A DNA stretch of 64,000 nt from Candidatus Doudnabacteria bacterium (GCA_963768175.1 CAVYGQ010000001.1:574305-638304); one strand, 5' to 3'. Numbered from the stretch's first letter, positions 7,247-46,560 are shown. Numbers and translations are program-made. Notes: a model not told the origin generated them from the letters alone.

Positions 7247-8275
7247 TTACTTCCCCTCCATCTCCTTCGTATATTGCCCCAATGTGGCTAGGCCGTTCAT
7301 TTTGGCGCGGTGCAGAAAAGCTTGTTGCGCGGCCGCGGCATTTTCCGCTTTGCCGTTCCAGATTTTTAGCGCGCTATCCTGCAGCGCGCGGCCATAAGAA
7401 AAGCTCAACTGCCAGGGCAATTCTCCTAAAAGATGCATGGCATTCAAATTTTCCGTTGCCTCAACTTCGCTCTGCCCGCCGGAAAGGAAAGCCTGCCCGG
7501 GCAAACCGTTAGGCAGTACTTTTTTAAAAAGCGCTACCGTGACCTCGGCAATTTGCGCAGCTGACAGTTTTTCCTCCGATTCTTTTCCCGGGATAACCAT
7601 ATTAGTTTTTAGAATCATGCCTTCCGGAACCACGCGTAAAGCCTGCAGTTCTTCAAACACGTAAGTCAAAGTTTTTTCACTGACTTCCGCACAACGGGCC
7701 GTACTGTGGTTGCCGTCCATCAGCACTTCCGGCTCCACCATAGGGACCAAGCCCGCCTGCTGGCAAGCCAAAGCGTAAGCGGCCAAAATTTTGGCATTTT
7801 GGCGGATGTTGCTCTTGGTGGGCAAATCTTTGCCGATGGTAATTACGGCCCGCCATTTGGCGAATTTCGCGCCCAAAATCACATATTCGGCCAGCCGCTT
7901 GGGCAAACCATCCAAACCTTTGGTCAATTTTTCTTCGGGCGATTCTTTAAAGCTTTCCGTGCCCAAATCCACCTTAATCCCCGGCAGTACCCCGGCCGCC
8001 TGCAATATGGAGATGAAACTCCGACCGTCTTTGGCAACTTGTCGGATGGTCTCGTCGTACATAATCGCACTGCTAATGTATTTGCCAATGTCGGGCGTGG
8101 TAAATAACATCTCCCGGTAAGACCGCCGGTAGGGTTCTTCGTTCGGCAAACCGATTTTCTCAAACCTTTTGCCAATGGTTCCCGTGCTCTCGTCCGCCGC
8201 CAAAATCCCCTTGCCCGGCGCGACCATGGCTTTGGCGATTTTGTTAAGTTCTTGGATTTTCGCTCGGTCTAACAT
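7247..8275 (-). CDS. fba: fructose-bisphosphate aldolase class I
   Basis: GILAADES Schiff-base aldolase class I signature; 342 aa. Confidence 0.8.
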   Translation of the reverse strand: MLDRAKIQELNKIAKAMVAPGKGILAADESTGTIGKRFEKIGLPNEEPYRRSYREMLFTTPDIGKYISSAIMYDETIRQVAKDGRSFISILQAAGVLPGIKVDLGTESFKESPEEKLTKGLDGLPKRLAEYVILGAKFAKWRAVITIGKDLPTKSNIRQNAKILAAYALACQQAGLVPMVEPEVLMDGNHSTARCAEVSEKTLTYVFEELQALRVVPEGMILKTNMVIPGKESEEKLSAAQIAEVTVALFKKVLPNGLPGQAFLSGGQSEVEATENLNAMHLLGELPWQLSFSYGRALQDSALKIWNGKAENAAAAQQAFLHRAKMNGLATLGQYTKEMEGK

Positions 8276-8305: not shown

Positions 8306-8683
8306 TTAATCATTTATATTAACTCGGTATGCGCTCTCGTCAATAACTTCTATTAATAGCTCCTCTTCGCCTTTAGTCAGTTTGCGTTTTATGGCCTTTT
8401 CTATTTTATCAAAGAAAAAAAACGAAAGTTCAAAAAAAATATTCTTTTTCTCCAAAGTAAAACTCCTTAAGTTTAATCTGGCGGCTAAATCCTTTATTTG
8501 CCCATCGGTCAAAACCTCGGCGCTTTTTATTCCCCGAGCCCAGTCTTCTATAGCTTTGCCAACCGCGGACTCAACTTCCTTTCTCTCTTCTATTATTACC
8601 CTGGACGCCTGGGCTTGCTCCATAATTTCTTCCGGTTCGCGTCCTCCTTCTCTATGATGGTGCCAATGGCTGTTTTCTGCCAT
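8306..8683 (-). CDS. hypothetical protein
   Basis: 125-aa ORF, no recognised domain. Confidence 0.35.
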   Translation of the reverse strand: MAENSHWHHHREGGREPEEIMEQAQASRVIIEERKEVESAVGKAIEDWARGIKSAEVLTDGQIKDLAARLNLRSFTLEKKNIFFELSFFFFDKIEKAIKRKLTKGEEELLIEVIDESAYRVNIND

Positions 8684-9744: not shown

Positions 9745-9788
9745 AAAAACAAAAATCACATTATTTAACGGCCGTTAAATAATGTGAT
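9745..9788 (-). terminator. rho-independent terminator of metK
   Basis: Perfect palindrome CACATTATTTAACGGCCGTTAAATAATGTG followed by a U-run on the minus strand. Confidence 0.6.
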
Positions 9789-9798
9789 TTTAAGCTGT

Positions 9799-10971
9799 TT
9801 ATTTCCTGGCTTTCGCCATTTTTTTTAGTTCTCTGATTTTATCCGTTTTCTCCCACGGGAATTTTACGTCAGTACGGCCAAAATGCCCGTAGGACGCGGT
9901 TTGTTCGTAAATCGGACGCTCCAGATTTAATTGTTTGATAATGTCGGCCGGTTTTAGCGGAAAGATTTCTTCCACGATTTTTTCCAAACGGTCATCGCTA
10001 ATCCTGCCGGTACCGTAAGTATCCACCATGGCGGAAACCGGTTTGGCCACGCCAATGGCGTAAGCCAGCTGCACCAGACATTTTTTCGCTAAACCCGACG
10101 CCACCACATTTTTGGCAATATAGCGCGCGGCATAAGCGGCGCTGCGGTCAACTTTGGTCACGCACTTGCCGCTAAAACATCCACCCCCGTGCGGCGCATA
10201 GCCGCCGTAAGTATCCACAATAATTTTGCGCCCGGTGAGCCCCGCGTCCGCTGGCGGCCCGCCCAGCACAAACCTGCCGGTGGAATTAATAAAAATCCTG
10301 ATATTTTTGTTAAACCACTTGCCGAGCACGGGCTTTATAACATATTGGGTAATTTCGCCGCGCAATTTTTCTGTGGTTACTTCTTCGGAATGATGCGCGG
10401 CGATGACGACCGTGGTAACTCTTCTTGGTTTTCCATTAACATACTCAATGCTGACTTGCGATTTGCCGTCCGGCCGCAAATACGGCAATTTTTTATTCTT
10501 GCGTACCTCGGCCAGCTTGCGGGTTAAGCCATGGGCCAAAGAGATTGGCAGCGGCATCAGCTCCTTGGTTTCGTCGCAGGCAAAACCGAACATTAACCCC
10601 TGGTCACCCGCGCCCTGTTCCTTAAACTCACCCTTGCCTTCGTCTACTCCTTGCGCGATATCAGGCGACTGTTCATGAAGCGTGCTAATGACACCGACAT
10701 CGGAAAAACAAAAACCGTATTCCGGCTTGTCGTAACCGATTTTTTTAAGCGTCCGCCTAACCACGCTTTGGATGTCCACATAAGCCTTGGTGCGCGCCTC
10801 GCCGCCCACAACTACCAAACCAGTGGTGGCAAAACATTCTATGCCGGCGTGCGCCTTTTTGTCCTGCCTAAGCATTTCATCGTACACGGCGTCGGAAATT
10901 TGGTCGCAAACTTTATCCGGATGCCCTTCGGTTACGGACTCGGAGGTAAAAACGTAGCTCTTTTTGATCAT
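9799..10971 (-). CDS. metK: S-adenosylmethionine synthetase
   Basis: [20 protein letters not shown] and GGGAFSGKD-like motifs; 390 aa. Confidence 0.95.
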
Positions 10972-11071: not shown

Positions 11072-11335
11072 AAAAAACCGCCTATCGGCGGGTTGTAAAA
11101 TTATCTTCCCCGCTCGGGGCTAGAAGTAGCACCTTTCGTATGGGGGTCCCCAAAAATTAGGAGCGCAATTTCCGTAATGCTTTACGGAAATGAGCACGGA
11201 TTTTTGGGGAGAGGAGCAACTGCGGAGAGCTAAGTTTCCGATTTTTATCGGAACGAAAGCTCGAAGCAAGTTGCGACGAGGTTGCTGGCAGGTCATTGGG
11301 CTAGATCCCTCACTGCACTCTTGATAAATTATTTT
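11072..11335 (-). promoter_or_regulatory. SAM-I (S-box) riboswitch with a greatly enlarged P3 region and an intrinsic terminator, in the metK leader
   Basis: Minus-strand RNA contains TTATCAAGAGTGCAGTGAGGGATCTAGCCCAATGACCTGCCAGCAACC and GAAAGGTGCTACTTCTAG core motifs, a P4 hairpin CCCCGAGCGGGG, then the terminator CCGCCGATAGGCGGTTTTTT. Confidence 0.7.
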
Positions 11336-14200: not shown

Positions 14201-14653
14201 CTATTTCTTATCTGCGTCATCAGTACCCGTCTGTATATCTGTGGCCTCAATTTCTTTATACAGCGTGCCTAAAACCCCGTTAACAAACTTGCCAGAGCTT
14301 TCCCCGCCAAAAGTCTTGGCCAGCTCCACGGCCTCGTTTATGGCCACTTTAGGCGGCACCTGCTTTAATATCATGAGCTCAAAAACGCCCAGGCGCAAAA
14401 CGTTGCGGTCCACCGGCGGGATTTGCTCCATGGGCCATTCAGGCGCGTGCTTGGTAATAATTTCGTCTATGGCCGAAAGGTTCTGCGCCACGCCGTTGGC
14501 CAATTCAAAAATAAAAACGGCATCGTCGCCGGCATCCGCAAATTCTTTTATGTGGGTTTTAACAATGCCTTTTAGCTCGCCACTTTGGCCGTTAAAATCC
14601 CACTCAAACAGCGACTGCAAAGCGATTGTTCTGGATAAATGCCGATTAGCCAT
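14201..14653 (-). CDS. nusB: transcription antitermination factor NusB
   Basis: RTIALQSLFEWDF and the C-terminal helical region match NusB. Confidence 0.85.
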   Translation of the reverse strand: MANRHLSRTIALQSLFEWDFNGQSGELKGIVKTHIKEFADAGDDAVFIFELANGVAQNLSAIDEIITKHAPEWPMEQIPPVDRNVLRLGVFELMILKQVPPKVAINEAVELAKTFGGESSGKFVNGVLGTLYKEIEATDIQTGTDDADKK

Positions 14654-14748
14654 AGGAAATTAAAAGTTTAAAATTCAAAGTTAAAAATAATAGAGTTTCT
14701 GCGGGGCAAAAACACCTAAATTTTACATTTTGATTTTTAAATTTTGCA

Positions 14749-14919
14749 TTATTTTGTAACTTTCCTGCCTTTGTAATATCCGCAATTCTTGCACGGCAAG
14801 TGCGGCATTGTGCTGCTTCCGCAATTTTTGCACGCGGCAAAAAAAATCTTTTTTAAAGCGTGGTGGCTGCGCCTTTGGTTGCGGCCACTGCGGGTTTTAT
14901 GTTTCTTTGGGACTCCCAT
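14749..14919 (-). CDS. rpmF: 50S ribosomal protein L32
   Basis: MGVPKKHKTRSGRNQRRSH...CKNCG...CKNCGYY is the L32 zinc-ribbon pattern. The track ORF begins at an upstream TTG; the ATG at 14919 is the likely start. Confidence 0.85.
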   Translation of the reverse strand: MGVPKKHKTRSGRNQRRSHHALKKIFFAACKNCGSSTMPHLPCKNCGYYKGRKVTK

Positions 14920-14968
14920 AATAATTTTTTCAAAATGCAAAAGTCAAAATGTAAAATTAATGCCCTTT

Positions 14969-15010
14969 CGGCGTCATCCTGAGTCCGCCTCCGGCGGACG
15001 AAGGATCTCT
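14969..15010. repeat. copy of the dispersed GTCATCCTGAG...GAAGGATC hairpin repeat family
   Basis: GGCGTCATCCTGAGTCCGCCTCCGGCGGACGAAGGATCTC. Relatives at 15092-15163, 28031-28068, 31909-32007, 52334-52475. Confidence 0.6.
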
Positions 15011-15091
15011 ACTTTTAAACTTCTGATTAATTAATGTTAAAGTGGGGTAATTATAACCAAAATCGCGGTTTTCGTCAATTCCTGTTCTTTT

Positions 15092-15163
15092 GTCATTGCG
15101 AGGAGTCAGACGACGAAGCAATCTGACGCCAATGGCGTCATCCCGAGTGCATCCGAGGGATCT
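15092..15163. repeat. composite repeat: GTCATTGCGAGGAG...CGAAGCAATC hairpin plus GGCGTCATCCCGAGTGCATCCGAGGGATC unit
   Basis: The first half matches one arm of the large palindrome at 32776-32870. The second half matches the 28031-28068 and 52334-52475 units. Confidence 0.6.
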
Positions 15164-15361
15164 TTTAATTAGATTGCCGCGTCCCGACAAGCCGGGACTC
15201 GCAATAACAGCGCTGACTCTCGTCAATCAGCCAACAAAAAATCCCTTCCAACCCTTGAAGGGGGTGGCAAGGTCGTGGCGATGGCGCGCACGACCTTGCC
15301 TGAGATGAATCTGACGAAGCCGCGACGACGGCGCGTGCGAACTCTACCCGGGATGCAATTT

Positions 15362-15811
15362 CTAATCCAGATCTCGGAGACGAGAATGCGGACGCGACCT
15401 CTTGGCCGATCTCGTCAACCAACCAGGATATCGTTGTCCTTGGGGGATTTCGAATCCCTGGTCGTGAAGCGGCCTGCCTTCGTAATGAGCGGGGTCGAGA
15501 AACCCCGAGGGCCGAATCGACGGCCAAACTTCCTCGTCGAACAGCATCTCAGAGGCTGCTGCCCGCAAACGACGGAGAAATTCCTCATCCGGATGCTTCT
15601 CCAACGGACGTAAGTCCGAAGCGTCAGCGGCTACCTCAGTCTTCGTGACTGAGTTAAGCCTATCTCTAAGGCTGTAGCCTTCAAGGACTCCTTCCCAGTA
15701 AACCGGGCTCTTGATATTCGTATCCGGTGTACCATTGGCACCGTCAGCGATGCCTTTTGAACGAAGCCGGTTCAGCAGGAGCAGAATCCTGATGATCTGA
15801 AACTCAAACAT
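15362..15811 (-). CDS. hypothetical protein in GC-rich island
   Basis: ORF with ribosome-binding site AAAGAGGGT 6 nt before ATG (MFEFQII...). No recognised domain. Confidence 0.4.
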   Translation of the reverse strand: MFEFQIIRILLLLNRLRSKGIADGANGTPDTNIKSPVYWEGVLEGYSLRDRLNSVTKTEVAADASDLRPLEKHPDEEFLRRLRAAASEMLFDEEVWPSIRPSGFLDPAHYEGRPLHDQGFEIPQGQRYPGWLTRSAKRSRPHSRLRDLD

Positions 15812-16227
15812 TTCTATACCCTCTTTCAACTTGGATTGAACTACAAACACTAATCTGCCCACAAAACCTTACGGGCAATTTACTGTCTGCAGTTTTCTCT
15901 ATTCTATTTTAAAATTGCTTTTAATAAAAGTGGATAACTCCCCCGTATTCGTGTCACCCGCCTAGACTCGACGTCTAGTCGAGGCTGGTTCGTGTGCCAT
16001 TCGTATATTAGTGTCGCTTCTTTTCTCCAACCCGCCTACGAGACAGGAATGCTGGCTTGGATAAAAATCGTAAGATTGTTATCCAAATCAGCCTCGTGGG
16101 CGGATTGCAGAAAAGAAATTTCTCACTATCCCCTTCTCCCTTAAGGGAGAAGGTGCCCGAAGGGCGGATGAGGGGGTTAAATTTAAGGTATGGCGAGGGG
16201 CGGTGGATCGATGCTCTGATCCTATTC

Positions 16228-16335
16228 CTATCCGCCCCTGCCTCGCCGATGTTGCCAGTAGTTCAGGAAGTCTTCAAAGAGCGGCTCCCCATATAGCACC
16301 CAAACTACGAGTGCCACTAACTCGGCAACTTTCAT
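16228..16335 (-). CDS. 35-aa hydrophobic peptide
   Basis: MKVAELVALVVWVLYGEPLFEDFLNYWQHRRGRGG. Ribosome-binding site GGAAAGGAGGAG 6 nt upstream. Start overlaps the upstream stop (TGAgATG). Confidence 0.4.
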   Translation of the reverse strand: MKVAELVALVVWVLYGEPLFEDFLNYWQHRRGRGG

Positions 16336-16336
16336 C

Positions 16337-16450
16337 TCACTCCTCCTTTCCACTCTTGGCCACACACCAGACTACAAAGATAATTACTATCAGCAGTCCG
16401 GCGGCGGCCACTAGCAGTGGCTTGATGTTCTGTGCCCACGCCTCAGGCAT
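16337..16450 (-). CDS. 37-aa single-TM peptide
   Basis: MPEAWAQNIKPLLVAAAGLLIVIIFVVWCVAKSGKEE. Ribosome-binding site TAAGGAGGAGGG 7 nt upstream. Confidence 0.4.
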   Translation of the reverse strand: MPEAWAQNIKPLLVAAAGLLIVIIFVVWCVAKSGKEE

Positions 16451-16466
16451 GGAATTTCCCTCCTCC

Positions 16467-16934
16467 TTAGTGACGTATCTCCAGATGACGTGGCCAGACA
16501 AACAGTAGCACCCAAACCACGTAAGCCATCGGACGATGGCTAACTACGAACCGCAGGATGCGCCACAGCTTGAGCCGCCTTCGGAGGCGCAAGCGGAGGA
16601 TGCAAAGAAATCTTAGGTTGTCTTTCCCCGCCAGCATTCTGGGGACCGCCCGGAGTTTTTCCCGGGCCTCTTCCTGGTCAATCAGATGGAAGAGATAACA
16701 CGCCGAGATCGCCCCCGCCGGAATCGGCCAGGAGAGGAGCAAGAGCAGGCGAAGCCTGCCGATGCCGCCGAAAAACTTCCCGCTCTTCTCGCCGTCGAAC
16801 AACTTGATGACGGCATTTACCAAAGCTCCCCAGCGAACAGCGTCGCGGATTTGGTTGGCGAGTTTGACAATCGCCCAACCGAGAATGATGGCCACACAGG
16901 CCACCATGAGAAACAACACGGGAAGATTGTTCAT
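16467..16934 (-). CDS. 155-aa membrane protein (2 TM, Arg-rich C-terminus)
   Basis: MNNLPVLFLMVACVAIILGW... Ribosome-binding site AAGGAGGGCGGG before ATG. ATGA overlap with the upstream ORF. Confidence 0.45.
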   Translation of the reverse strand: MNNLPVLFLMVACVAIILGWAIVKLANQIRDAVRWGALVNAVIKLFDGEKSGKFFGGIGRLRLLLLLSWPIPAGAISACYLFHLIDQEEAREKLRAVPRMLAGKDNLRFLCILRLRLRRRLKLWRILRFVVSHRPMAYVVWVLLFVWPRHLEIRH

Positions 16935-17176
16935 CCCGCCCTCCTTCGCCGCGCGGTCCAAAACCACACGACTAACGTCACTTCGATTACCCGCTTGAGC
17001 CAGCCGTACAAGCTGACCCTGTTGCGCAGCGGCGGGACCGCTTCCTGAAGCCTTCTTTTGTCCCACCACGCCGGAAACACAAATATGCCGTAAAGCACCG
17101 CCGCAAGGGCGAATGCTAAAATCAACCCGAGCCGCTCCGGCTCGGTGGCAAAACCTGGCGTGCCTACGTCTATCAT
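16931..17176 (-). CDS. 81-aa membrane protein
   Basis: MIDVGTPGFATEPERLGLILAFALAAVLYGIFVF... Ribosome-binding site AAGGAGGA. ATGA overlap with the upstream ORF. Confidence 0.45.
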   Translation of the reverse strand: MIDVGTPGFATEPERLGLILAFALAAVLYGIFVFPAWWDKRRLQEAVPPLRNRVSLYGWLKRVIEVTLVVWFWTARRRRAG

Positions 17177-17331
17177 CCGATCCTCCTTCGCATGGCCCAA
17201 TACCATACGCCAAGCGTGGCACCGGCGTATTGCAACGCCAAGCCAATGATGACGAAGAGCCGGTAGATAACCCGACAGAGGTCGCCGATGAACTCGGTGA
17301 CCGTATCTACCGTGTCATAGTCTCGTTGCAT
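17173..17331 (-). CDS. 52-aa membrane peptide
   Basis: MQRDYDTVDTVTEFIGDLCRVIYRLFVIIGLALQYAGATLGVWYWAMRRRIG. Ribosome-binding site GGAGGTGG. Confidence 0.4.
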   Translation of the reverse strand: MQRDYDTVDTVTEFIGDLCRVIYRLFVIIGLALQYAGATLGVWYWAMRRRIG

Positions 17332-17491
17332 TCTTACCACCTCCGAACCTATAAATTTACCCTGAACCCGAATCCGCCTGGGGCGGATGAGTGGTTTAGG
17401 GCTAACACTATTTAAAAATTTGCAGGTTTGGGAGTAGAAGTAAGGGGCGGCGGATATAAATGCACTATGAATGTCTTGCCGCCCCAAAAGG

Positions 17492-17674
17492 TTACTTGAC
17501 TAAGAACATTATTGCAGCTCCCACCAGGAAGCCGCCGACGATGGCAAGCAGCGCCATCGCCATGTTCTTTTGGCGGCGATCTTCTGCCGCCTTTCTCGCA
17601 GCCGCTTCGGCCGCGAGTTGCTCTTCCGTCATTGCCGGCCGAACCGGCAACGACCAGACATCAAATTCCTTCAT
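17492..17674 (-). CDS. 60-aa tail-anchored membrane peptide
   Basis: MKEFDVWSLPVRPAMTEEQLAAEAAARKAAEDRRQKNMAMALLAIVGGFLVGAAIMFLVK. Ribosome-binding site AAAGGAGGGG 3 nt upstream. Confidence 0.45.
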   Translation of the reverse strand: MKEFDVWSLPVRPAMTEEQLAAEAAARKAAEDRRQKNMAMALLAIVGGFLVGAAIMFLVK

Positions 17675-17995
17675 GTCCCCTCCTTTCTCTCGGGGAATCA
17701 AAACCCTAAAATCAAGATACTGATTCCCCGAGAGGCAATTGTGTTGTATATTTTACTTCTGTTTTTATCTTTTTTCAACCCCATTAGAAACTTTATAAAA
17801 GTTCGGTTTTATTTTATTCATTATTTTTATCGGCAAAGCATTTGTTTTCAGTAAACCAAAGTTTAGGAAGTTTCTAACGGGGTCAACCACCATTTTCCTC
17901 CTACAAAAAAATGGGGGAATAAAACTGGTCATTAAAATAAGATAACTCATTTAACGACCAAATTTCTTCCCCCATTATTTGTTCAAAACTTCGGT

Positions 17996-18032
17996 CACAT
18001 TAAATAACGGCCGTTATTTAATGTGATTTTTA
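17996..18032 (+). terminator. orphan plus-strand intrinsic terminator
   Basis: Perfect palindrome CACATTAAATAACGGCCGTTATTTAATGTG followed by ATTTTT. No plus-strand CDS lies upstream. Confidence 0.4.
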
Positions 18033-18221
18033 CTTCCACCATTGTGGGTCTTAAGGAAATAGGCCTAATCCCGCTCAGCGGGACAAAATGTTTTGCCCTC
18101 CTAAGGCCCACGATGGTGAAAACAATTTATGAAACTTACTAACTACCCCAGCACCAATTTTTACAATAAAGTTTTACGGCAAAGCGCTTTGGGTTTTATC
18201 AAGACGATTATACGATAACAA

Positions 18222-18262
18222 CGCCACCCGCCTTCGCTAAAGCTTCGGCGGGTTGTTTTTTG
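18222..18262 (+). terminator. plus-strand intrinsic terminator in a non-coding stretch
   Basis: CCCGCC...GGCGGG stem followed by TTGTTTTTT. Confidence 0.4.
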
Positions 18263-18649
18263 GGCTAAGCCCAAAAAACAACAAAAAACCGTACACTCAA
18301 TACAGGAGAATCAATAAAAAATTATTCTTGTATGCAGTATACGATTTTATCGCGCTCCCGATCCGGTTTAACGAAATCAGGAGCATGTATATCCGGCGCT
18401 AATTTTCTCAAATAAACCCTATCCATTTAAATGCCTAATTTTCTGGGAACATATTGCACAAAGCTTACTCAAGAAAATTAGCACCGGAGCGTATACCCAT
18501 TTGTCTCCTGTTAAAACAAACAGATAGCTATGGAATTTTTAAAGGTCACCACCTGTTACGATGATGACCTAATACTATACGCCTTTTTAGCTGCTTTGTC
18601 AAGAGTAAAAGATAAAAAAGCCAATTTTTGGCTTATTTAAGACTTTGTT

Positions 18650-19143: not shown

Positions 19144-20817
19144 TTAGTAATCCATCCCGCCCATGCCTCCCATGCCGCCCGGCATACCGCCGGCAGGAGC
19201 CGAAGTCTTGGGCTCGGGCTTGTCTACCACAATGGCCTCGGTGGTAACTAAAGTAGAAGCGATGGATACGGCGTTTTCCAAAGCCAAACGAGTAACCTTT
19301 AACGGGTCAACAATCCCGGCTTTCATCATGTTTTCTACCATTCCGGTCTGCCAGTTCGCCTCGTCATATTTGGCAAAATCATAACCAGCATGAGGACCGC
19401 CGGTCTGGATAAAAGTAATAATACCGGTCGGCTCAACACCGCTGTTTTGGGCAATTTGCCTTAACGGCGCTTCCAGCGCGGCGCGGACGATTTTATAACC
19501 CATTCGGTGAGCGCCGCTGACTTTATTCATTTCTTTTTCCAACAACGGGACAATTTTTACTAAAGCCGCGCCGCCACCGGCCACAATTCCCTCTTCTACC
19601 GCCGCTTTGGTGGCATTAAGCGCGTCTTCAATTTTAAACTTCTTGACTTTCATTTCGGTTTCCGTAAACGCGCCGACTTTAATTACGCCCACGCCGCCGG
19701 CCAAACGGGCCATGCGTTCCTGCAGCTTTTCCTTGTCGTAATCCGAAGTAGAAGCCTTATATTCAGCTTTTATTTGGTTGACGCGGTCGTCTATTTTTCT
19801 CTTGTCGCCTGCGCCGCCGACAATGGTGGTAAACTCCTTGGTGGCAATAACTTTTCTGGCCTTGCCCAAATCCACCAATTCGGTTTTATCCAATTTCAAA
19901 CCTAAATCTTTGGTTATAACATTGCCGCCGGTTAATACGGCAATATCCTGAAGCATTTCTTTGCGCCTGTCGCCAAAACCCGGAGCCTTGACCGCCAAAA
20001 CGTTAAAGGTGCCGCGGATTTTATTGACCACAAAAGTGGCCAGAGCTTCGCCTTCAACTTCATCAGCAATTATGACCAAATCTTTTTTGCCGCTTTGTGC
20101 GACCTTTTCCAAAATCGGCAAAACGTCCTGGACAGAGGAAACCTTTTCGTCCGTAATTAAAATATAGGAATCTTCCCAGACGGCTTCCATACGTTCGGCG
20201 TTGGTGACCATGTAAGGATTTACAAAACCTTTGTCAAAACGCATGCCTTTAACCACTTCTTTTTCCAAACCCGTGGTCTGGCCTTCTTCCACGGTAATAA
20301 CCCCTTCGTGTCCGACCTCTTCCATGGCTTCGGCTATCAGTTTGCCGACTTCCGCGTCCAAAGAAGCAATGGTTGCGACCTGCTGGATTTCTTCTTTGTT
20401 TTTGACGTCCTTTTTGACTTTGGAAAGCTCGCTGACAACGAATTTAACCGCGTTGTCCATGCCTTTCTTAATTTCGTTGGCCTGGGTGCTGGCCAAAGCC
20501 GCGGCTTCAAAGGCCTCCTGAATCATTGTCTGGGCCAAAACCGTGGCCGTGGTCGTGCCGTCACCAGCAGCTTCGTTGGTCTTATTGGCCACTTCCTGAA
20601 TTAAGGATGCGCCTAGGTTCTCAAACTTGTCTTCCAGCTCAATTTCCTTGGCAACCGTGACGCCGTCGTCGGTAATGGTGGGGCTGCCAAAGCCTTTGTC
20701 TAAAATAACCGCCTTGCCGGTTGGGCCAAGCGTAACCCTAACCGCGTTAGCGGCCTTGTCTACGCCGGCTTTAATGGCCTGCTTGGCGTCAAAACCATAC
20801 TTGATAATTTTGCTCAT
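19144..20817 (-). CDS. groL: chaperonin GroEL
   Basis: 557 aa. Canonical GroEL N-terminus and GGM-repeat C-terminus ([15 protein letters not shown]). Confidence 0.95.
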
Positions 20818-20926
20818 ATTTTACTCCGTAAAATCTCTACTAAATACGAAAGAGTATTAAAGATACTAAAACTGACAAAACCTAATTTAGTATATTTCGT
20901 ATATTTTAGTATTTAGTAGAAAATAA

Positions 20927-21232
20927 TTATTCAATTAATGCTAAAATGTCGGAATCGTCCTTTTCTTTCCCGACGTATAAAATTTTATATTCCTCTTTTT
21001 TTCCTTTTTCATCAATCTCCACTTCTTCGCCGGCGTATTTGCCAAAGACCACGGTATCGCCCACTTTTAACCCGAGCGCGGCTATTTCACTGCCGTTGCC
21101 TAACTCCACAATTTTGCCTTGGGCTTTTTTTTCTTTGTCCGCCGTATCCGGCAAGACAATTCCGGACTTGGTTACTTCCTCGCTGGAAAGCTGTTTTACC
21201 AGTACACGGTTTCCTAAAGGTTTTACTTTCAT
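20927..21232 (-). CDS. groS: co-chaperonin GroES
   Basis: MKVKPLGNRVLVK...GKYAGEEVEIDEKG... Confidence 0.9.
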   Translation of the reverse strand: MKVKPLGNRVLVKQLSSEEVTKSGIVLPDTADKEKKAQGKIVELGNGSEIAALGLKVGDTVVFGKYAGEEVEIDEKGKKEEYKILYVGKEKDDSDILALIE

Positions 21233-27869: not shown

Positions 27870-28124
27870 TTTCTGTCAATATATTCCTGCTCTCCGGGTT
27901 CCATAAATTTTCCTTTCTAAATTTACTTTTTTATCGCCTTTATACTATATTACTCTCTCTATGCTTGTCAAAAATTAAAAAAACTCCCCATTTGGGAAGT
28001 TTCTGTTAAGGTCATTATTGCTCAGTTAAGAGATCCTTCGCTCGGATGCACTCGCTCAGGATGACGCCGAGGTATGGAGTTTACAGCGTGTAATCCGCGT
28101 AAATATCCGCGTGTAATCCGCGGT

Positions 28125-31688: not shown

Positions 31689-32268
31689 ATAAGACAAATT
31701 GATATGCGCCAAAAAGCGCAACCGTATATCCTAAATCCCCAAACAAGGTGCCGCGGAAAAACGGCAGGCCGTTAACGTACGCCGCCATAATCCCGATTAA
31801 ATTATGGCTATATGAGCCGTAAAAAAAGGCAAAGTTGGTAACCAAAAAGAATATGGCCGATGAAAGCAAGGACGAGCCGATGATTTTTGCCCACTTCACA
31901 ACGGCGTCATCCTGAGCCCATCCAAAGAAAATTCCCAGCGGGCGAAGGAACTCTTTCTTAGATTGAGATTCTTCAGCCTCAGATGCATTCGGCTTCAGAA
32001 TGACGCCATTGGTAGCAGACTTTTTAATCCACAGCCCAAACAACACACCAACCAAATGCGAAGCGTAAACCGCAACCATTAGCGGCCAGGCAAAAAACCC
32101 CAAAAATATATCGCTAATAAATCTCACGGCTAAAGTCAGGCCGACTGATTTTTTCCAGCCCAAATTCGCCGCGCTAAAAATCGCCAAAGCCGTTATGGGG
32201 GCGGCGTTGGGCATATGGGGGATAAATCTGGCGGCTATTGCCGCTATAATCAAAAAGTAGATAATCAT
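31645..32268 (-). CDS. polytopic membrane protein carrying an in-frame inverted-repeat-bounded insert
   Basis: 207 aa, 5-6 TM helices. The segment 31909-32007 is bounded by GGCGTCATCCTGAGCCC / GGCTTCAGAATGACGCC inverted repeats. Confidence 0.45.
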   Translation of the reverse strand: MIIYFLIIAAIAARFIPHMPNAAPITALAIFSAANLGWKKSVGLTLAVRFISDIFLGFFAWPLMVAVYASHLVGVLFGLWIKKSATNGVILKPNASEAEESQSKKEFLRPLGIFFGWAQDDAVVKWAKIIGSSLLSSAIFFLVTNFAFFYGSYSHNLIGIMAAYVNGLPFFRGTLFGDLGYTVALFGAYQFVLYAKSNKQRALAATT

Positions 32269-38888: not shown

Positions 38889-40085
38889 CTACTTCATTTT
38901 CTTTCTAATAAACGCAGGGATGTCCAGCTCGTCTTCATTATTTTCCGAAGGCTGGGGCTGGGGATTGACGATTTCTATAGGCGGGACGGGTTTGGGATTA
39001 AACATCGGCTTGCGGAATTCCGGCGGAGACATTACCGGGGGGGTAGCGGCTTTTGGCTCCTGGATTTTCGGCTTCCTGGATTCATCGTTTAAAACCATAG
39101 CCGCTGGCGTAACCCTTTTGCTACTTTCGTCAAAGCCCGTGGCAATAACCGTAATGCGCACTTCGTCGCTCATGGATTCGTCTATAACCGCGCCGAATTT
39201 GACTTTGGCGTCAGGATCTATATTCTTGGTAATAACCTTGGCGGCTTCGTCTATTTCAAACATGCCCAAGGAACTGCCACCCGTAATGTTAAACAATACA
39301 CCTTTGGCACCGTCTATGGTCATCTCCAGCAAAGGAGAACTAATGGCCGCTCTGGCCGCTTCCTGGGCGCGGTTTTCGCCCGAGGCACGCCCAATACCCA
39401 TTAAGGCGGTACCAGCATCCATCATAATGCTTTTGACGTCGGCAAAGTCGGCATTAACAATGCCATGAGTGGTAATTAAATCGGAAATCCCGGCAATCCC
39501 TTGGCGAAGAACCTCGTCCACGGTTTTGAAAGCATCCACCAAAGAAGTTTTTTTATCTATAATCTGTAAAATCCGATCATTGTGAATGGAAATTATGGCA
39601 TCTACCTTATCTTTTAAGTTATCATAGCCGGTCTCGGCAATTTCTTTTCTCTTGCTGCCTTCAAAAGTAAAAGGCTTGGTAACCACCGCTACGGTTAGAA
39701 CAGATTTGTTCTTGGCCAGCTCCGCCACAATTGGCGCGGCTCCCGTGCCGGTGCCGCCGCCTAGACCGCAGGTAATAAAAATCATATCCGCGTTGTCTAT
39801 AACCTCTTCCAGATCTTCCACGCTCTCTTCGGCCGCCTGCCTGCCCAAATCCGGGTTCATACCGCTACCTAAGCCTTTGGTTGTGCCTTTGCCAATATGG
39901 ACTTTGCGGTCGGCCTGGTTGTTGTGCAAAGCCTGGGCATCGGTATTTATTGAAATGAATTCCACACCCTTTATGCCCAGCTGGGTCATGCGGTTAACGG
40001 CGTTAGTGCCCGAGCCGCCGATGCCCAAAACCTTAATCCTGGCGAAAGTCTCAATTTTGGGTTTGACTTCCATAAATTTTTTCAT
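38889..40085 (-). CDS. ftsZ: cell division GTPase FtsZ
   Basis: [25 protein letters not shown]-terminal DIPAFIRKK peptide. Likely start MKKFMEV. Confidence 0.95.
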
Positions 40086-40301
40086 AGTCTCTGACTTCAG
40101 AATAATAGATAAAAAAAATAAAATCAAGCGCCGGACAACTTATACTGCCTTTTGCGATTGATTTTTGTTTTAACCGCTGTTTTGGCGGTGGTTTTTGCTT
40201 CAAAATGATTATAGCATAACCACGTTATAAGACAAATAATCTATAAATAAAAAAGACCTTTTTAGGTCAAAATTCGGTTGATGGGGCGAAGAAAAAAACA
40301 A

Positions 40302-40471: not shown

Positions 40472-41674
40472 CTACTTGCGAAGACGGATGAATCGGAAAG
40501 ATCGGTTGAAGTGGCTAAAGCCAGCTCCGTGGTAGCCGACAAACCATCCCCCATAATACCAACCAAGGACATACACTTCACGTCCGCTGTCCTCGCTCAA
40601 CGCAATGGTGCGTGGCAGGAGGATAACAACTCCGCCCTTATCAATGTCTGTTCTAAGGTCTGGCGGTATAATGTTCTTACCCTCTTTTTCGGCATCAAGC
40701 ACTAATTTACCGAGGCCAAGACTCCCGATGGCTCCTACCTCTTTTGCTCGTTTAAACATTGTATCGCTGTCAATCGAGTTTTCATCTCCCCGCACCGGGC
40801 AGTATGAAAAGTCAAGATTGGCGAGATTAACACTACTTTCTAGGTCATCAGTTAAGATCTGATGCCCCTTTGCTAGGAGACCGGTGTCTTGGGCACGAAG
40901 CGGTCTGACGATGTTGCCGCCTTGTCTTTCTGTGCTGTTGACTTGTTTCCCTTGTTCCCGAGCTCTCGCCTGTTCGGCAGCCAGTCGTTCCGCCAGTTCT
41001 CTGGCCTTTTGCTCCGCTTCACTATTTCTCTGCTCCAGTTCGGCCTTCTGGCGTTCCAGGTCCTTGGTTCTTTGCTCCAGCTCCGACCTTTGCCGTTGCT
41101 GTTCCAGTTCTTTCTCTCTGGCTTTTTGTTCCTCTTGTTCCCTGATTCTTTGTTGCTCCTCATCTTTGAGCTTCTGTTGCTCCAGCTCTTTCGCCTTTTG
41201 TTCATCCATTTGTTGGATGACCTCCGGCGTGAGTGGAAGAAGCTGGGTGCCGTAGCGAGGGTGAAACTTGTAACCCAAGGGCAGCAGTTCAATCCTGTCG
41301 TCCTGGGCTTTGTAGTAGCGGTACATCGCTTGGCCGGTCATGGGGTTGAAGTAGTGGCCTTGTTTGGGCTGAGCGAGGAAGTACATAATCACCAGCCAGC
41401 TGGAAACGGCCGAGGCGATGATTATTACCTTCTTGGTGGTCCGCCTAAAAAACAGCGCGGACAGGAAGGTGGGGATGAGCAGCATGGTGACCACGGTCAG
41501 CCAGAGGCTGATTGCCCCGTTTAAGGTGTCGGGCAGACCAGCCATGTTTTGGAGGTTTCCGAAGAACCAGGAGTAGATACCCCAGGCCATCAGCAGGTCC
41601 AGCAGCCGGAAAGTCAGGAAAGCACCGGCTGCCAAGGTACCGTAAAACAACCCGCGCTTGACTATGCGGTTCAT
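40472..41674 (-). CDS. multi-TM membrane protein with E/Q/K/R-rich coiled coil and unique C-terminal domain (paralog A)
   Basis: 400 aa. N-terminal ~190 aa is homologous to the 46880-48283 product (YRYYKAQDDRIELLPLGYKFHPRYG vs YRYYKADNGRIELFPLAQKYHRRYG). ELEQQ-type heptads follow. Confidence 0.5.
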   Translation of the reverse strand: MNRIVKRGLFYGTLAAGAFLTFRLLDLLMAWGIYSWFFGNLQNMAGLPDTLNGAISLWLTVVTMLLIPTFLSALFFRRTTKKVIIIASAVSSWLVIMYFLAQPKQGHYFNPMTGQAMYRYYKAQDDRIELLPLGYKFHPRYGTQLLPLTPEVIQQMDEQKAKELEQQKLKDEEQQRIREQEEQKAREKELEQQRQRSELEQRTKDLERQKAELEQRNSEAEQKARELAERLAAEQARAREQGKQVNSTERQGGNIVRPLRAQDTGLLAKGHQILTDDLESSVNLANLDFSYCPVRGDENSIDSDTMFKRAKEVGAIGSLGLGKLVLDAEKEGKNIIPPDLRTDIDKGGVVILLPRTIALSEDSGREVYVLGWYYGGWFVGYHGAGFSHFNRSFRFIRLRK

Positions 41675-41808
41675 TGAGCGTTCCTCTTTCTGTTTGTGGA
41701 ATGTGCTACATCAAGCTTTCGCTTGACTTAATATCATATTCCAACAAAAAAGAGCTGCCAATGACCTCAAAACAAAAAAACGCTTTTTTTATACCTATTT
41801 ATTAAATT

Positions 41809-42150
41809 TCAAACCTTATTATTTTTTCGGCTCATAACTGTCTTTAAAAACTCATGCTCCTTTAAAAATGCGTCTTCCAATGCTTCCGCAAAACCGGGAA
41901 TCTCCGCCGTAATCCGGGTAATCTTCTCTTCCGCAGTTTTTGGATCTTTTAATGCTTCCTGAATTTGTAATTTTTGTTCCGGCGTTGCCATCATTATCAT
42001 GGTATCCAAAACCACATTTTGGTAACGTTCCGAAAGCATGACAAGAGCTTTTTGTTTTTCTTGTTCCGGCAAGTTGTCCAAATTCAAATCCGCCAAAAGC
42101 TCTTTGACTTCGCCTTGCGCATCGGGTTTCCTATTTTTTTGCGTGTCCAT
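41809..42150 (-). CDS. hypothetical protein
   Basis: 113-aa ORF 18 nt downstream of the 970-aa gene. Confidence 0.4.
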   Translation of the reverse strand: MDTQKNRKPDAQGEVKELLADLNLDNLPEQEKQKALVMLSERYQNVVLDTMIMMATPEQKLQIQEALKDPKTAEEKITRITAEIPGFAEALEDAFLKEHEFLKTVMSRKNNKV

Positions 42151-42167
42151 AAGTTAAGTTAGTTATT

Positions 42168-45080
42168 TTATTTTGCTCTCGCTTCCGTCCTTAATTCCGC
42201 GCTGGCAATGTTGCTGGCTTTTTCAAAATATTTTGGCTTTATCCGCTTTAAGCCTTCCATAACTGTTTTCAGATGTTCCGCGTCCTGCTCTTTTTGCCCG
42301 CCCTCTTTTTTTGCCTGCCTGACAGCCGTAATAAAAATTTTATAAATTTGAACTAGCGGGCCAAGAGCTGCGGCTGGATCTTTGTCAATTTCGGGTTTTG
42401 TTTTTTTATAATCTTGTCGTGACAATAATTCCAAAATCTCGTCAATTTGCGAATCGGACAGCAAATTTTTGGCTCTTATTTCCTGCCAAACCTGGCTAGT
42501 CGGATTTAGATATTTCGCCCAGGCTTCTTTGTTGACGCCCAAAGCTCCGGCCTCGGTTTCCAAGGGGTTTTGCTCTTTTGCCGGAGTTTCCAGTTTAACC
42601 TCGGTCTGGATTTTGAGAAACAAGCCCGGTGCTAATTGTCCAAGCTCGTCCAACAAACTACCTGCCTTATCTTTTTCCCTACTAGACAAAACAGTTTTAT
42701 ATAACTCTTTCAATATTTCTATGCTGCCAGATGCGTTATACTTCTCAAAACCTATAATTAAACTGCGTCTGAACTTTTCCGCATCTCTTTCGCCAAAAAG
42801 CGCATTAACCGGACCGCCTGATTTTTCCATTATCAAAAACCATTTATTCAACCTCTGGGTCGGCTTGTTGCCGTTCTCTTCAACTTTTTCGGGTGTAACA
42901 ATTTTTAGCCTGAAAGCCAATGCGCACAAATCCCTCTGCCAACCTTCCAGATTGGGAATTTTGTTGGCCGCTTCCCTTGTCCGCGCTTCATCGGACAAAA
43001 CGACGACTGGTTCTGGCTTAGAAATATTTATCCCAAGATTTATTTCCCCTATATTTAAAGATATAGGAGCTTTAGACTTTTGACGATGCGACCAAATTTT
43101 GCCGTACAATTTTGCCGTTTCCTCTACCGGCGTATTAATGACTTTGGCAATGGGTTTGGCTGCTTTCTCGGCAGTACGCCTAATACGTTCAACCACACCT
43201 CCGCCACCGCCTCCACCGCCTCCACCGCCCCCGCCCGATCCTCCCCCGCCGGCGGTCATTAAAGTTTCTACGGATGAATTTCTTTTTTTATGCAAAACAT
43301 AAGCCGCGCCAAGCGATGAAAGTGCAAGAATTGCCGCCCCAGTCGCTATTACTTTACGCTCTTGCTCATCGGCAGCCAACTGCTCCGCAGTCGGCTTAAC
43401 GGCTTCATGGGCCGCAACGGCAGCGGCATTAGCGCCGGTTTCCGCCGCGTGCTGCGCTCCGGTCTGGGCCGCGGCTTTTATTACCTGCCCTGTTGCCTCA
43501 TGGGCAACGGCAGCAGCCTGTTTTAAGGTTTCCTCTAAAACCGGTACATGCACGCCGTTGGCTTCGGCAATTTTATACAATGCCTCGGCATGATGAAGTT
43601 CAAAGCCCGACTGCATATGGATATCCGGAATGTTTCCATGGATATGATGAAATCCCGGAAAATCGGCCAAACCGTGATGCGCCGTAATTTCAACACTGTT
43701 AAGCGCGGACAGCTGTTTTGTACCTTCATTTATTAATTGGTTACTGGGATGCTGGACGCCATGAGCCACATACCATTCTTTGACCGAATCCCAAACTGTC
43801 TTTTTCATCTGGATTTTCAAATCCACCGCCGCTTGCTGCACAGATTCGTGCGCGGATTTGACGGCTTCGCCAATCGCTCCATGGTTGGCGGCAACAACTT
43901 CCGCATGCCTGCTTATGATTTCTTGAGCCGCTCCGGCGGCATGATGCGCGCCAGTGGCCAAATCCACAATAGCGCCAGCTATCGCTCCGCCAACCGCTCC
44001 GGCCAAAGCCCCATACAAAGCGGCTTTGGCAATCTTGCTTTTATCCTTAGTTAAACCGTATCGCTTTAAGATTTTTTCCAGTTCCAAAAAGGTTTCCTGG
44101 TTTGTCCGTGTTTCCGTACCCGAAAAAGTAGCGCCATGAGCAGGCGCAGCTGTATGGCCATGAGCCTCATGCGTCTGAGCGACAGACACTGGTGCGGTCG
44201 CGTGAGTTGCCGTTTCCGTAGACTGCGAAGGAGGCTGCAACCAAAAACTATCGCGCAAAGCCAAAACTTTTTGTAAACGATTTGCGCCTTCCAAATTCAG
44301 CCATTCTTTCTTTTTTACCAAAACCGCCAAATCCTGCAACTGCCGGTATAAATCAACTTCCTCATTAACCTTGGTTTCCAAACCGTGCTGGTGCAAAGCC
44401 TCGGTGATTGCGATATACCGTTCCACCTGCGCCAACGGCGTTAAATTACTGGCATCTGCCAAAAGCTGCTTATAGGTATCCAAAGATGTAAAACGTTTCT
44501 TTTGTCTATGGCTTTCTCTGGCATATTCCCAAGTTCCTCCAACCGCGGCACCGGCCAAAGCGCCCGCACCAATAGTACCAAAATCAAGAAGTCTTTTTGC
44601 CCCCTCACGCACCACATATCCGGCTACGATTTTGGCCGCCACTCCTCCCGCCGCCAAACCGGCGCCGGATCCCCATTTGGCCGACTGCCAAAACCTGACT
44701 TTTTTCCCAAAAACTTTTTCTTCTTTCACCCGTCTGGTTATTTCTCCCGCATTTTGCCTCACCACCCTTTGCTGCTCGGGTGGTAATTGCTGCGTAGCGG
44801 TATCAACCGCCTGCTCAACCGGATCCCCGGCTTGGGCTTCGGTTTGTCTTTCGGGACCTGCTTCATGATTCTGTCCGGCCTGCCCCTGTTCTTGTGCGCG
44901 CACTCCCCCAGCTGCTACCGCGGGTGCGGCGGATTCAGGAGTTGCCGCAGCGGGCGCTTGGCCGTTTTCCGACGGTAAAGAATCCAAATCTCTGCGCAAT
45001 GCGGCGTTGGCATCAGGAGCTGTTTCGGTAAGCCCGTTATGATGTCTTTCTGCCATAAAATCAAATAAAATATTTCGCAT
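42168..45080 (-). CDS. 970-aa hypothetical protein with glycine-zipper segments, His-rich region and a 17-residue poly-Gly linker
   Basis: Glycine-zipper ALYGALAGAVGGAIAGAIVDLATGA; His-rich HHGLADFPGFHHIHGNIPDIH; linker TAGGGGSGGGGGGGGGGGGGVV. No recognisable catalytic domain. Confidence 0.5.
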   Translation of the reverse strand: MRNILFDFMAERHHNGLTETAPDANAALRRDLDSLPSENGQAPAAATPESAAPAVAAGGVRAQEQGQAGQNHEAGPERQTEAQAGDPVEQAVDTATQQLPPEQQRVVRQNAGEITRRVKEEKVFGKKVRFWQSAKWGSGAGLAAGGVAAKIVAGYVVREGAKRLLDFGTIGAGALAGAAVGGTWEYARESHRQKKRFTSLDTYKQLLADASNLTPLAQVERYIAITEALHQHGLETKVNEEVDLYRQLQDLAVLVKKKEWLNLEGANRLQKVLALRDSFWLQPPSQSTETATHATAPVSVAQTHEAHGHTAAPAHGATFSGTETRTNQETFLELEKILKRYGLTKDKSKIAKAALYGALAGAVGGAIAGAIVDLATGAHHAAGAAQEIISRHAEVVAANHGAIGEAVKSAHESVQQAAVDLKIQMKKTVWDSVKEWYVAHGVQHPSNQLINEGTKQLSALNSVEITAHHGLADFPGFHHIHGNIPDIHMQSGFELHHAEALYKIAEANGVHVPVLEETLKQAAAVAHEATGQVIKAAAQTGAQHAAETGANAAAVAAHEAVKPTAEQLAADEQERKVIATGAAILALSSLGAAYVLHKKRNSSVETLMTAGGGGSGGGGGGGGGGGGGVVERIRRTAEKAAKPIAKVINTPVEETAKLYGKIWSHRQKSKAPISLNIGEINLGINISKPEPVVVLSDEARTREAANKIPNLEGWQRDLCALAFRLKIVTPEKVEENGNKPTQRLNKWFLIMEKSGGPVNALFGERDAEKFRRSLIIGFEKYNASGSIEILKELYKTVLSSREKDKAGSLLDELGQLAPGLFLKIQTEVKLETPAKEQNPLETEAGALGVNKEAWAKYLNPTSQVWQEIRAKNLLSDSQIDEILELLSRQDYKKTKPEIDKDPAAALGPLVQIYKIFITAVRQAKKEGGQKEQDAEHLKTVMEGLKRIKPKYFEKASNIASAELRTEARAK

Positions 45081-45112
45081 ATATTATAGTATTTTTCCCT
45101 TAAAAATGCAAA

Positions 45113-45140
45113 AAACCGAAAGATAAACTTTCGGCTTTGC
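45113..45140 (-). terminator. intrinsic terminator downstream of the 45375-46424 gene
   Basis: CCGAAAGTTTATCTTTCGG hairpin followed by a U-run on the minus strand. Confidence 0.45.
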
Positions 45141-46424: not shown

Positions 46425-46560
46425 CTCACTCCTCCTAGAGCGTGCATGAGTGGCGAGACCCCCACCCAAGCTCTGGAATGTACTGCCAGTCTCGTTAACG
46501 GCTACTATTATTTATATAACAGCCACAAACGAGGCCAAAAGTTGCGTTTGATTTTTGGAT

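Follow-up and report, generated by a model that had tools for sequence, protein, structure and literature searches.

Six small membrane-protein ORFs between groEL and rpmF

In a 64,000-nucleotide (nt) stretch of a Candidatus Doudnabacteria chromosome (GCA_963768175.1, CAVYGQ010000001.1:574305-638304; hereafter the window, whose numbering is used throughout), the gap between groES-groEL (19144-21232) and rpmF-nusB (14201-14940) carries six small open reading frames (ORFs) on the minus strand, which together span about 1.45 kb (16228-17674). We conclude that they probably form a resident operon of membrane microproteins that are translated together and diversify rapidly, located in a variable gap of a Doudnabacteria-like chromosome of the candidate phyla radiation (CPR).

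All six ORFs that an earlier note on this sequence had reported (60, 52, 81, 155, 37 and 35 amino acids, aa) are present, and they are numbered here ORF1 to ORF6 in minus-strand order. ORF1 (17492-17674) combines a soluble charged N-terminal part with a C-terminal transmembrane helix of the tail-anchored type and has the ribosome-binding site AAAGGAGGGG, while ORF2 (17173-17331; site GGAGGTGG) has an acidic N-terminus, one transmembrane helix and an RRRIG tail. ORF3 (16931-17176) encodes two hydrophobic helices and an RRRRAG tail, and ORF4 (16467-16934), the longest, a transmembrane helix at the N-terminus together with a second hydrophobic region and a stretch rich in Arg. The two shortest products come from ORF5 (16337-16450; one transmembrane helix, site AAGGAGGAGGG) and ORF6 (16228-16335; a short hydrophobic helix and an RRGRGG tail). 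The earlier note gave every ORF a transmembrane helix; a hydrophobic segment was indeed found in six of six, the one in ORF6 (about 15-17 residues) being marginal as a transmembrane helix. The short peptides have a net charge of 0 to +1 and unbroken hydrophobic stretches of 15-28 residues, and several of the 35-60-aa peptides contain Trp; the net charge is +6 for ORF3 and +16 for ORF4.

The three overlapping junctions described before were all recovered, as ATGA overlaps between ORF2 and ORF3 and between ORF3 and ORF4, and as TGAnATG between ORF5 and ORF6; in addition, the ORF4 stop codon is overlapped by the ORF5 ribosome-binding site. Several junctions are repeated sequences. Both junctions of ORF3 are 19-nt repeats with 84% identity (repeat D4), the C-terminus of ORF3 is similar to that of ORF2, and the ribosome-binding site and start region of ORF5 are duplicated at ORF6 (repeat D9).

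Shine-Dalgarno signals, coding strand and composition

Each of the six ORFs has GGAGG or AGGAGG 3-11 nt ahead of its ATG, in agreement with the strong sites noted earlier. On the minus strand, six of the window's 15 AGGAGG sites fall inside the 1.45 kb of the cluster. GGAGG-N3-11-ATG was observed 20 times in the window (12.2 expected from shuffles), and six such starts on one strand within 1.45 kb have a Poisson P of about 9e-9. Among 49 other likely genes of the window, AGGAGG is complete in only one and matched at 5/6 positions in four more, most leaders being A/T-rich, which bears out the view that so dense a polycistron with good ribosome-binding sites is unusual here. In Parcubacteria an anti-Shine-Dalgarno motif was detected in only 48% of 16S rRNAs (PMC9297842).

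GC content by codon position is coding-like in the minus-strand ORFs. It cannot decide the strand, because the mirror frame gives the same pattern: the plus-strand ORF at 16686-17048 has GC1/2/3 values of 0.68/0.45/0.64, as expected from the mirror frame of a coding region. The strand is settled by the ribosome-binding sites, the starts and the comparative data, all of which favour minus. No AGGAGG occurs on the plus strand between 15200 and 17750, against six on the minus strand, and the plus-strand ORFs give polar low-complexity translations, lack ribosome-binding sites and are not kept in the related contig L085, in which ORF1 and ORF4 are (see below). The minus strand is therefore coding, as had been proposed. 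That the plus strand or neither strand is coding, the minus-strand ORFs being mere shadows, is extremely unlikely, even though the codon-position values of 16686-17048 could be quoted in its favour.

The rise in GC content across the island was likewise reproduced: it reaches 0.566, where the host genes average 0.456 (z=2.5), and the GC content at third codon positions (GC3) is 0.68 compared to 0.50 (z=2.4), although elevated values (0.52-0.58) are seen at 1-4 kb and 45-46 kb of the window too. The raised GC and GC3 may come from frequent recombination (GC-biased gene conversion) or from repeated acquisition.

Proteins of an orthologous locus evolve about ten times faster than housekeeping proteins

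A HMMER search with ORF4 of 1.84 billion representative proteins returned one true homologue, P0004 (136 aa, E 2.9e-7, 50% identity over ORF4 residues 53-112), and one repeat-protein artefact. P0004 is located at the same locus on L085, a 23.6-kb Joint Genome Institute (JGI) contig of which three other samples carry identical copies. Gene order is the same in L085 and the window, and amino-acid identity amounts to 88% for NusB, 94% for GroEL and 96% for GroES. The ORF1 orthologue (L085 7370-7561, 63 aa, 53% identity) lies behind the same AAAGGAGGGG site. At the position of ORF2, L085 has a 55-aa ORF (7724-7891) whose upstream sequence and ribosome-binding site are the same and whose layout of acidic N-terminus and transmembrane helix is similar, but which has no detectable sequence similarity to ORF2. 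The 3' end of ORF6 and the sequence after its stop align with a 53-aa ORF (8322-8483). ORF3 and ORF5 have no counterpart in L085 and are specific to the window; their repeated junction segments and the ORF2-like C-terminus of ORF3 suggest that they were gained by local duplication of ribosome-binding-site and start segments. Gene number at the locus would thus apparently change by duplication of ribosome-binding-site and junction segments. The earlier note had named a lack of conservation of all the small ORFs in related sequences as a refutation of its reading; with ORF1 and ORF4 retained at the same locus, this is not the case.

Between window and L085, the housekeeping genes have dN values of 0.04-0.09 and dS values of 0.5-0.9 (dN/dS 0.05-0.19), whereas ORF1 has dN 0.55 and dS 1.7 (dN/dS 0.32) and ORF4 has dN 0.67 and dS 1.1 (dN/dS 0.59). 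The small proteins therefore evolve about ten times faster than the core, under weak purifying selection. When the alignable blocks are pooled, differences at codon positions 1, 2 and 3 number 40, 32 and 50. Open frames, starts, ribosome-binding sites and hydrophobic helices are retained in L085 also where sequence identity is lost.

The non-coding flanks are better conserved between the two sequences than the ORFs themselves. The promoter block (17782-17742) is 95% identical to L085 7214-7255, and two further flanking blocks are 90% (18640-18491) and 78% (16121-15840) identical to L085. Horizontal transfer, which had been considered, is not supported as a recent event, because operon, promoter and RNA hairpins lie together between groEL and rpmF in relatives at a housekeeping dS of 0.5-0.9. 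By this comparison, the locus, its promoter and its RNA hairpins are vertically inherited.

The gap in more distant relatives

The window is part of a 949-kb contig. Relatives of its NusB come from metagenome-assembled genomes of Patescibacteria/Parcubacteria, and the 90% identity cluster of its GroES, with 118 members of which three were examined, includes 'Candidatus Doudnabacteria'; an exact look-up of its RpmF gave no record. The gene order from fpg through groES-groEL, the gap, rpmF and nusB to LTD is conserved in relatives, with a groEL-rpmF gap of 1.2 to 4.4 kb and differing content. In L009, six overlapping transmembrane ORFs of 35-53 aa with GGAGG sites lie between the same two conserved non-coding blocks, and the last ORFs of this cluster and of the window's show marginal similarity only (E 0.03). 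L092 (Doudnabacteria GCA_016218585.1) has ORFs of the same style of 53, 49, 60, 39 and 80 aa, of which the 60-aa ORF is tail-anchored and lies behind AAAGGAGGGG; profile comparison detected no homology between it and ORF1, nor between ORF4 and a three-helix ORF of L003. L003 and L005 carry larger Shine-Dalgarno-bearing sets in which transmembrane microproteins are mixed with small soluble proteins, two ORF pairs being detectably related between them, and in the gap of L089 the only ORF of this kind, 148 aa long and multi-helix, follows a GGAGG site. A search for homologous clusters, as suggested earlier, thus yielded the L085 orthologues and, in L009, L092, L003 and L005, clusters of similar style, often with overlapping ORFs, without detectable sequence similarity. 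The architecture thus recurs at this position, with sequences that have been replaced or have diverged past recognition.

The density of small membrane ORFs with Shine-Dalgarno sites was also scanned at about 60 loci with rpmF next to nusB. Upstream of rpmF such ORFs number 1.1-2.4 per kb in L009, L003, L005 and L085, compared to 0-0.1 per kb elsewhere in the same loci.

Envelope-related genes were seen in the gap at L092 14723-16362, L006 7894-9405, L007 7859-9085 and L003 6139-6933, namely two Rce1/CPBP-type intramembrane proteases (L092), a LysM protein, a protein judged by eye to be transpeptidase-like and a DUF5715 protein. A general tendency of the groEL-rpmF slot to gather envelope functions is suggested.

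Promoter, hairpins and insertions framing the cluster

A promoter scan placed a sigma-70-like promoter on the minus strand at 17750-17778 (TTGAAA, 17-nt spacer, TAAAAT). It is followed by a stem-loop of the 5' untranslated region (5' UTR) at 17687-17734, directly before the ORF1 ribosome-binding site, with perfect 14-nt arms (repeat I14) and a folding energy of -32.2 kcal/mol (z -5.1); at the equivalent position L085 has a hairpin of different sequence (z -5.8). After ORF1, a GC-rich hairpin (17444-17485, minus strand) whose stem is kept in L085 (fold z -2.7 and -2.9) may act as an attenuator or stabilise the mRNA. The 3' end of the cluster is marked by a stem-loop of about 100 nt (16017-16118, minus strand; -53.5 kcal/mol, z -8.0). 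L085 8563-8664 folds in the same way (z -5.2), its changes being G·U-compatible, and L009 shares the 5' arm (1710-1743).

Two insertions relative to L085 and L009 were noted. One is a 55-nt miniature element, CTCATCCGCCCTTCGGGCACCTTCTCCCTTAAGGGAGAAGG (16119-16177, minus strand), that resembles repetitive extragenic palindromic (REP) sequences and is 87-94% identical over 45-59 nt to replicons of Rhizobium, Shinella and Aeromonas; L085 and L009 have no copy. The other, a partial second copy, lies in the ORF1-ORF2 spacer (17381-17398). A REP-like element of the Rhizobium/Shinella/Aeromonas type is odd in a CPR genome. Repeat analysis revealed no direct repeats flanking the island.

An independent Logan contig, L001, is an exact copy of 16146-18024 and ends in the REP-like element at 16119-16177 and in a palindrome at 17995-18030. 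An assembly chimera was rejected, since L001 crosses the upstream junction and relatives share the flanks. The palindrome, 36 nt long, perfect and followed by a T-run (TCACATTAAATAACGGCCGTTATTTAATGTGATTTT), occurs at 17995-18030 and again at 9751-9791, and is probably a bidirectional terminator.

A conserved candidate RNA upstream of the cluster

The hairpin-rich spacer that had been noticed past 17700 (wider extent 17904-18640) is conserved non-coding sequence. Inside it, upstream of the operon, lies an unclassified structured RNA with hairpin and intrinsic terminator (18282-18392, minus strand, about 110 nt), which is 79-90% identical in L085, L009, L089 and L092. Its consensus consists of two hairpins followed by a U-run and contains two invariant CUCCU motifs; double compensatory changes were absent across the five sequences. 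A promoter-like site is located upstream (18602-18574), and the 301-nt candidate transcript folds with a z of -11.5. No Rfam family matches the RNA at 18282-18392, and we regard the region as a candidate for a new small RNA adjoining the operon.

Family searches and class tests

Searches of Pfam, PHROGs, PADLOC and NCBIfam with ORF1-7 (ORF7 is described below) and the neighbouring 145-aa ORF gave nothing significant; the sub-significant PHROG hits were to families of unknown function or of the 'moron' category. Blastn of the island against 50,697 phage records and tblastn with ORF4 against phages found no match, and against plasmids the sole blastn match was the 55-nt REP-like element. Four IMG/VR scans (ORF3, ORF4, an ORF4 alignment and an ORF1 alignment) and a profile search of the PDB with ORF4 were equally without match, and a word-indexed search of 5.8 billion proteins with ORF4 returned only ORF4 itself.

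Several known classes were compared with the cluster. A phage holin or lysis cassette, one of the readings offered in the earlier note, is not supported: the ORFs match no holin family (Pfam Phage_holin_*, PHROG lysis category), no endolysin is adjacent, and groEL/groES, rpmF, nusB and orphans make up the surroundings, with no PHROG, phage or viral match. A leaderless or multi-peptide bacteriocin, proposed in the same place, fares no better. The short peptides, at net charge 0 to +1 and with unbroken hydrophobic stretches, are not the cationic amphipathic 30-50-aa kind and have no double-glycine leader, and between groEL and nusB there is no transporter of the ATP-binding cassette (ABC) type, C39 peptidase or immunity gene. 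As to the antisense RNA antitoxin of a type I toxin-antitoxin system, no Rfam match was found and the sole plus-strand promoter-like site (16356-16384) lies inside ORF5, which L085 lacks, an RNA of unknown type being possible.

An inovirus prophage is not indicated by ORFs or Pfam/PHROG searches, which gave no pI/Zot-type ATPase or rolling-circle replication protein in 13-25 kb of the window. Integron cassettes were discarded since no IntI integrase is nearby and there is no room for attC, because the ORFs overlap or stand 1-16 nt apart. A type IV pilin or pseudopilin operon does not fit either, as the G/FTLxE prepilin motif is missing from six of six ORFs and no Pfam pilin matched. Nor do the ORFs fit as fragments of one large membrane-protein gene: each has its own ribosome-binding site and ATG, separate ORFs with their ribosome-binding sites are retained in L085, and the full HMMER search found no intact larger ORF4 homologue. 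No reverse transcriptase and no template/variable repeat pair, as a diversity-generating retroelement would have, was seen in the locus. A lipoprotein signal in ORF4 was dismissed, as a basic n-region is lacking and P0004 does not share the Cys.

ORF7, a second variable gene downstream

The separate gene that the earlier note placed downstream of the cluster, with 150 aa and its own ribosome-binding site, is present as ORF7 (15811-15362, minus strand); it encodes a soluble protein of 149 aa and its site is weak (AAGAGGG). It has its own conserved leader and is followed by a terminator block (15221-15309, minus strand; terminator-like site 15262-15243) with 86% identity to L085 9255-9344 and 77% to L002 542-627. 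A word-indexed protein search with ORF7 gave one homologue, P0003 (49% identity), which lies directly upstream of rpmF-nusB in the more distant relative L002. Between the leader and terminator shared with ORF7, the closer relative L085 has an unrelated 148-aa ORF (window 15362-15905 compared to L085 8560-9344), and L009 has no gene at this position. ORF7 is a second, separately framed variable gene, and its exchange between close relatives looks like cassette replacement. Assignment to YceD/DUF177 was rejected for want of a Pfam match. No match was obtained in a metagenome scan with the ORF7 alignment, by profile search of the PDB or by tblastn against phage records, and a metagenome scan with the pattern VYWEGVLEG produced only a chance match in a glyoxalase-like gene. 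AlphaFold models reached a predicted local distance difference test (pLDDT) score of 46 for ORF4 and 41 for ORF7.

Other features of the window

A dispersed intergenic repeat family (…GATCCTTCG…GGATGCACTC…CAGGATGACGCC…) occurs at 14966-15163, 28025-28070, 31980-32019 and 52334-52475, the first of these comprising two copies beside the island. The genes ftsA and ftsZ are normally adjacent; here ftsA (49976-51223) and ftsZ (38889-40127) are parted by about 10 kb of GC-richer orphan genes (40472-49875), several with Shine-Dalgarno sites, among them two paralogous coiled-coil genes (40472-41674 and 46880-48283) and a gene for a 349-aa signal-peptide protein with a GC content of 0.63. An S-adenosylmethionine (SAM) riboswitch above the Rfam gathering score is located at 11098-11330 (minus strand), upstream of metK (9799-10971).

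Discussion

How the operon may work and what speaks against this reading

Judging from the sequence signals, the operon would be transcribed from the sigma-70-like promoter at 17778-17750 into an mRNA with the 5' stem-loop at its start and the long 3' stem-loop (16118-16017) at its end. Six small proteins would be translated from it, each from a strong Shine-Dalgarno site, with the start/stop overlaps coupling ORF2-3-4 and ORF5-6. For the products, hydropathy predicts membrane microproteins that are tail-anchored, cross the membrane once or have two to three helices, their basic tails facing the cytoplasm. They would most likely be inserted together into the cell membrane and form a small hetero-oligomeric assembly. 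The role is the weakest step: the turnover pattern suggests that the envelope function is accessory and under pressure to diversify, and not that of a housekeeping complex, and candidate roles are immunity to or exclusion of phages or membrane-active toxins, or an interface with the host cell. The products may be microprotein subunits of a membrane complex, as the earlier note had listed among its possibilities; the coupling fits, while the very fast turnover argues against a core housekeeping complex.

Several points weigh against a resident operon of this kind. No family, fold or context gene indicates a function, the ORF4 and ORF7 models being of low confidence. Constraint is weak: differences in the ORF4 core are nearly equal at codon positions 1 and 3 (24 and 23), and the dN/dS values of 0.3-0.6 are estimates from a single pair with near-saturated dS, because true orthologues come from one close relative only, L085, with identical sequence in four samples. 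Moreover, the density scan found no such cluster in the gap of the close relatives L006, L007 and L008, which holds other genes, including those for the LysM protein and the transpeptidase-like protein.

Alternative explanations

The cluster could instead be the remnant or domesticated form of a membrane module from a phage or mobile element, such as a holin/antiholin, superinfection-exclusion or structural set, left by an old integration at a hotspot downstream of groEL and the RNA gene. Its GC3 of 0.68 compared to a host value of 0.50, the strong Shine-Dalgarno sites in a genome that rarely uses them, the small overlapping membrane ORFs with basic tails, the unrelated genes that occupy the variable slot in different relatives, the REP-like miniature elements inserted in the island and a weak, sub-threshold SieB match in an analogous ORF of L003 would all suit such an origin. 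We nevertheless consider it unlikely, since the island and its immediate surroundings contain no gene for an integrase, endolysin, capsid, Zot-type ATPase or replication, neither PHROG and PADLOC nor the 50,697 phage records and the four IMG/VR scans gave a significant match, flanking direct repeats are lacking, and the promoter and RNA flanks shared with relatives imply long residence. In another reading, the ORFs are proto-genes or decaying genes of little or no function, kept open in a GC-rich, recombination-prone gap while their sites persist by descent. This would account for the very fast divergence, with ORF3 and ORF5 gained or lost, ORF2 unrecognisable in L085 and ORF7 replaced, for a dN/dS of up to 0.59 with codon positions 1 and 3 of ORF4 changing almost equally, and for the near absence of homologues from collections of 5.8 billion and 1.84 billion proteins. 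Six GGAGG-ATG starts on one strand (P about 1e-8) make it quite unlikely, as do the sites, starts, frames and helices that are kept in L085 despite about 45% nucleotide divergence with dN/dS below 1, and the same layout found again in at least five related genomes. Tight packing is usual in CPR genomes, and one of only 949 kb is therefore unlikely to carry along 1.5 kb of functionless DNA behind a conserved promoter.

Very unlikely, in our view, are secreted or membrane-damaging peptides, whether a leaderless multi-peptide bacteriocin or a type I-like toxin set, directed against competitors or the host cell. Tandem hydrophobic, Trp-containing peptides of 35-60 aa with strong ribosome-binding sites would be in keeping with them, and the slot of L092 holds two genes of the Rce1/CPBP type, a family often linked to bacteriocin immunity. 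The near-neutral charge and unbroken stretches of transmembrane length of the short peptides are, however, unlike cationic amphipathic helices, the double-glycine leader, ABC transporter, C39 peptidase and immunity gene are all missing at the window locus, and no bacteriocin or toxin family matched. Moreover, the ORFs all point the same way and are coupled, and a conserved antisense RNA or promoter, as in type I systems, was not detected.

Comparison with known systems and significance

Since the holin, inovirus and bacteriocin-type tests failed and no antisense RNA of a type I system was detected, we file the locus in no family. The most fitting description is a hypervariable, lineage-specific operon for small membrane proteins; in its working it comes closest to variable loci of such proteins that lie between conserved flanks. 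The pneumococcal blp bacteriocin-immunity region, a variable cassette of small ORFs within conserved flanks, resembles it in its conserved regulatory framing, in its small, fast-changing ORFs, many of them for membrane proteins of 1-4 helices, and in content that differs between close relatives. Unlike blp, the window locus has no double-glycine peptides, ABC transporter/peptidase or two-component/pheromone genes, its ORFs are overlapping and coupled, and they belong to no detectable family. Phage holin/lysis cassettes share the small proteins of 1-3 helices, basic C-terminal tails, overlapping genes and strong ribosome-binding sites, but the window locus lacks endolysin, spanin, phage context and any Pfam/PHROG holin match and is a conserved chromosomal locus across species. 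Type I toxins (Hok, Ldr, Ibs, TisB, Fst) are likewise membrane peptides of 35-60 aa, sometimes in tandem, beside highly structured RNA. The window locus differs from them in its six coupled, probably co-transcribed ORFs, its open strong Shine-Dalgarno sites and its proteins of 81 and 155 aa; neither an antisense RNA gene nor a match to an Rfam antitoxin was detected. The inovirus block (g7p, g9p, g8p, g6p) is similar in its coupled tiny hydrophobic proteins with acidic N- and basic C-termini, best matched by ORF2, followed by a hairpin-rich non-coding region, whereas the window locus has no Zot/pI ATPase, replication initiator, gene for a single-stranded DNA-binding protein or viral homologues, and has a fixed chromosomal position and a host-type promoter. 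The locus is unusual in relying on Shine-Dalgarno sites, which its genome seldom uses, in having flanks that are more conserved than the coding sequence, and in the apparent change of its gene number by junction duplication.

A broader reading, which we put forward only tentatively and hold to be possible rather than probable, is that a clade of Doudnabacteria-like CPR bacteria maintains downstream of groEL an 'expression slot' framed by the conserved RNA, the promoter and the 5' and 3' stem-loops. Shine-Dalgarno-dependent membrane microprotein genes, a special gene class in a genome poor in Shine-Dalgarno sites, would be duplicated, replaced and diversified there, far more quickly than the remaining genome, as an envelope-varying system for defence, immunity or the host interface, and the RNA with its two CUCCU motifs might regulate their sites.

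CPR bacteria have tiny genomes with many genes without known function, and small membrane proteins are the least understood part of these, often dismissed as annotation noise. The rapidly diversifying operon described here is a concrete case in which microprotein ORFs are real by several independent criteria and tied to a conserved promoter and RNA framework. Should the ORFs be weakly selected proto-genes, the locus would exemplify gene birth and loss in a reduced genome. The strong Shine-Dalgarno sites here, against their near absence elsewhere, bear on translation start in Parcubacteria. If conflict with phages, competitors or the host cell lies behind the turnover, the locus would show at which point an episymbiont's envelope is under selection.

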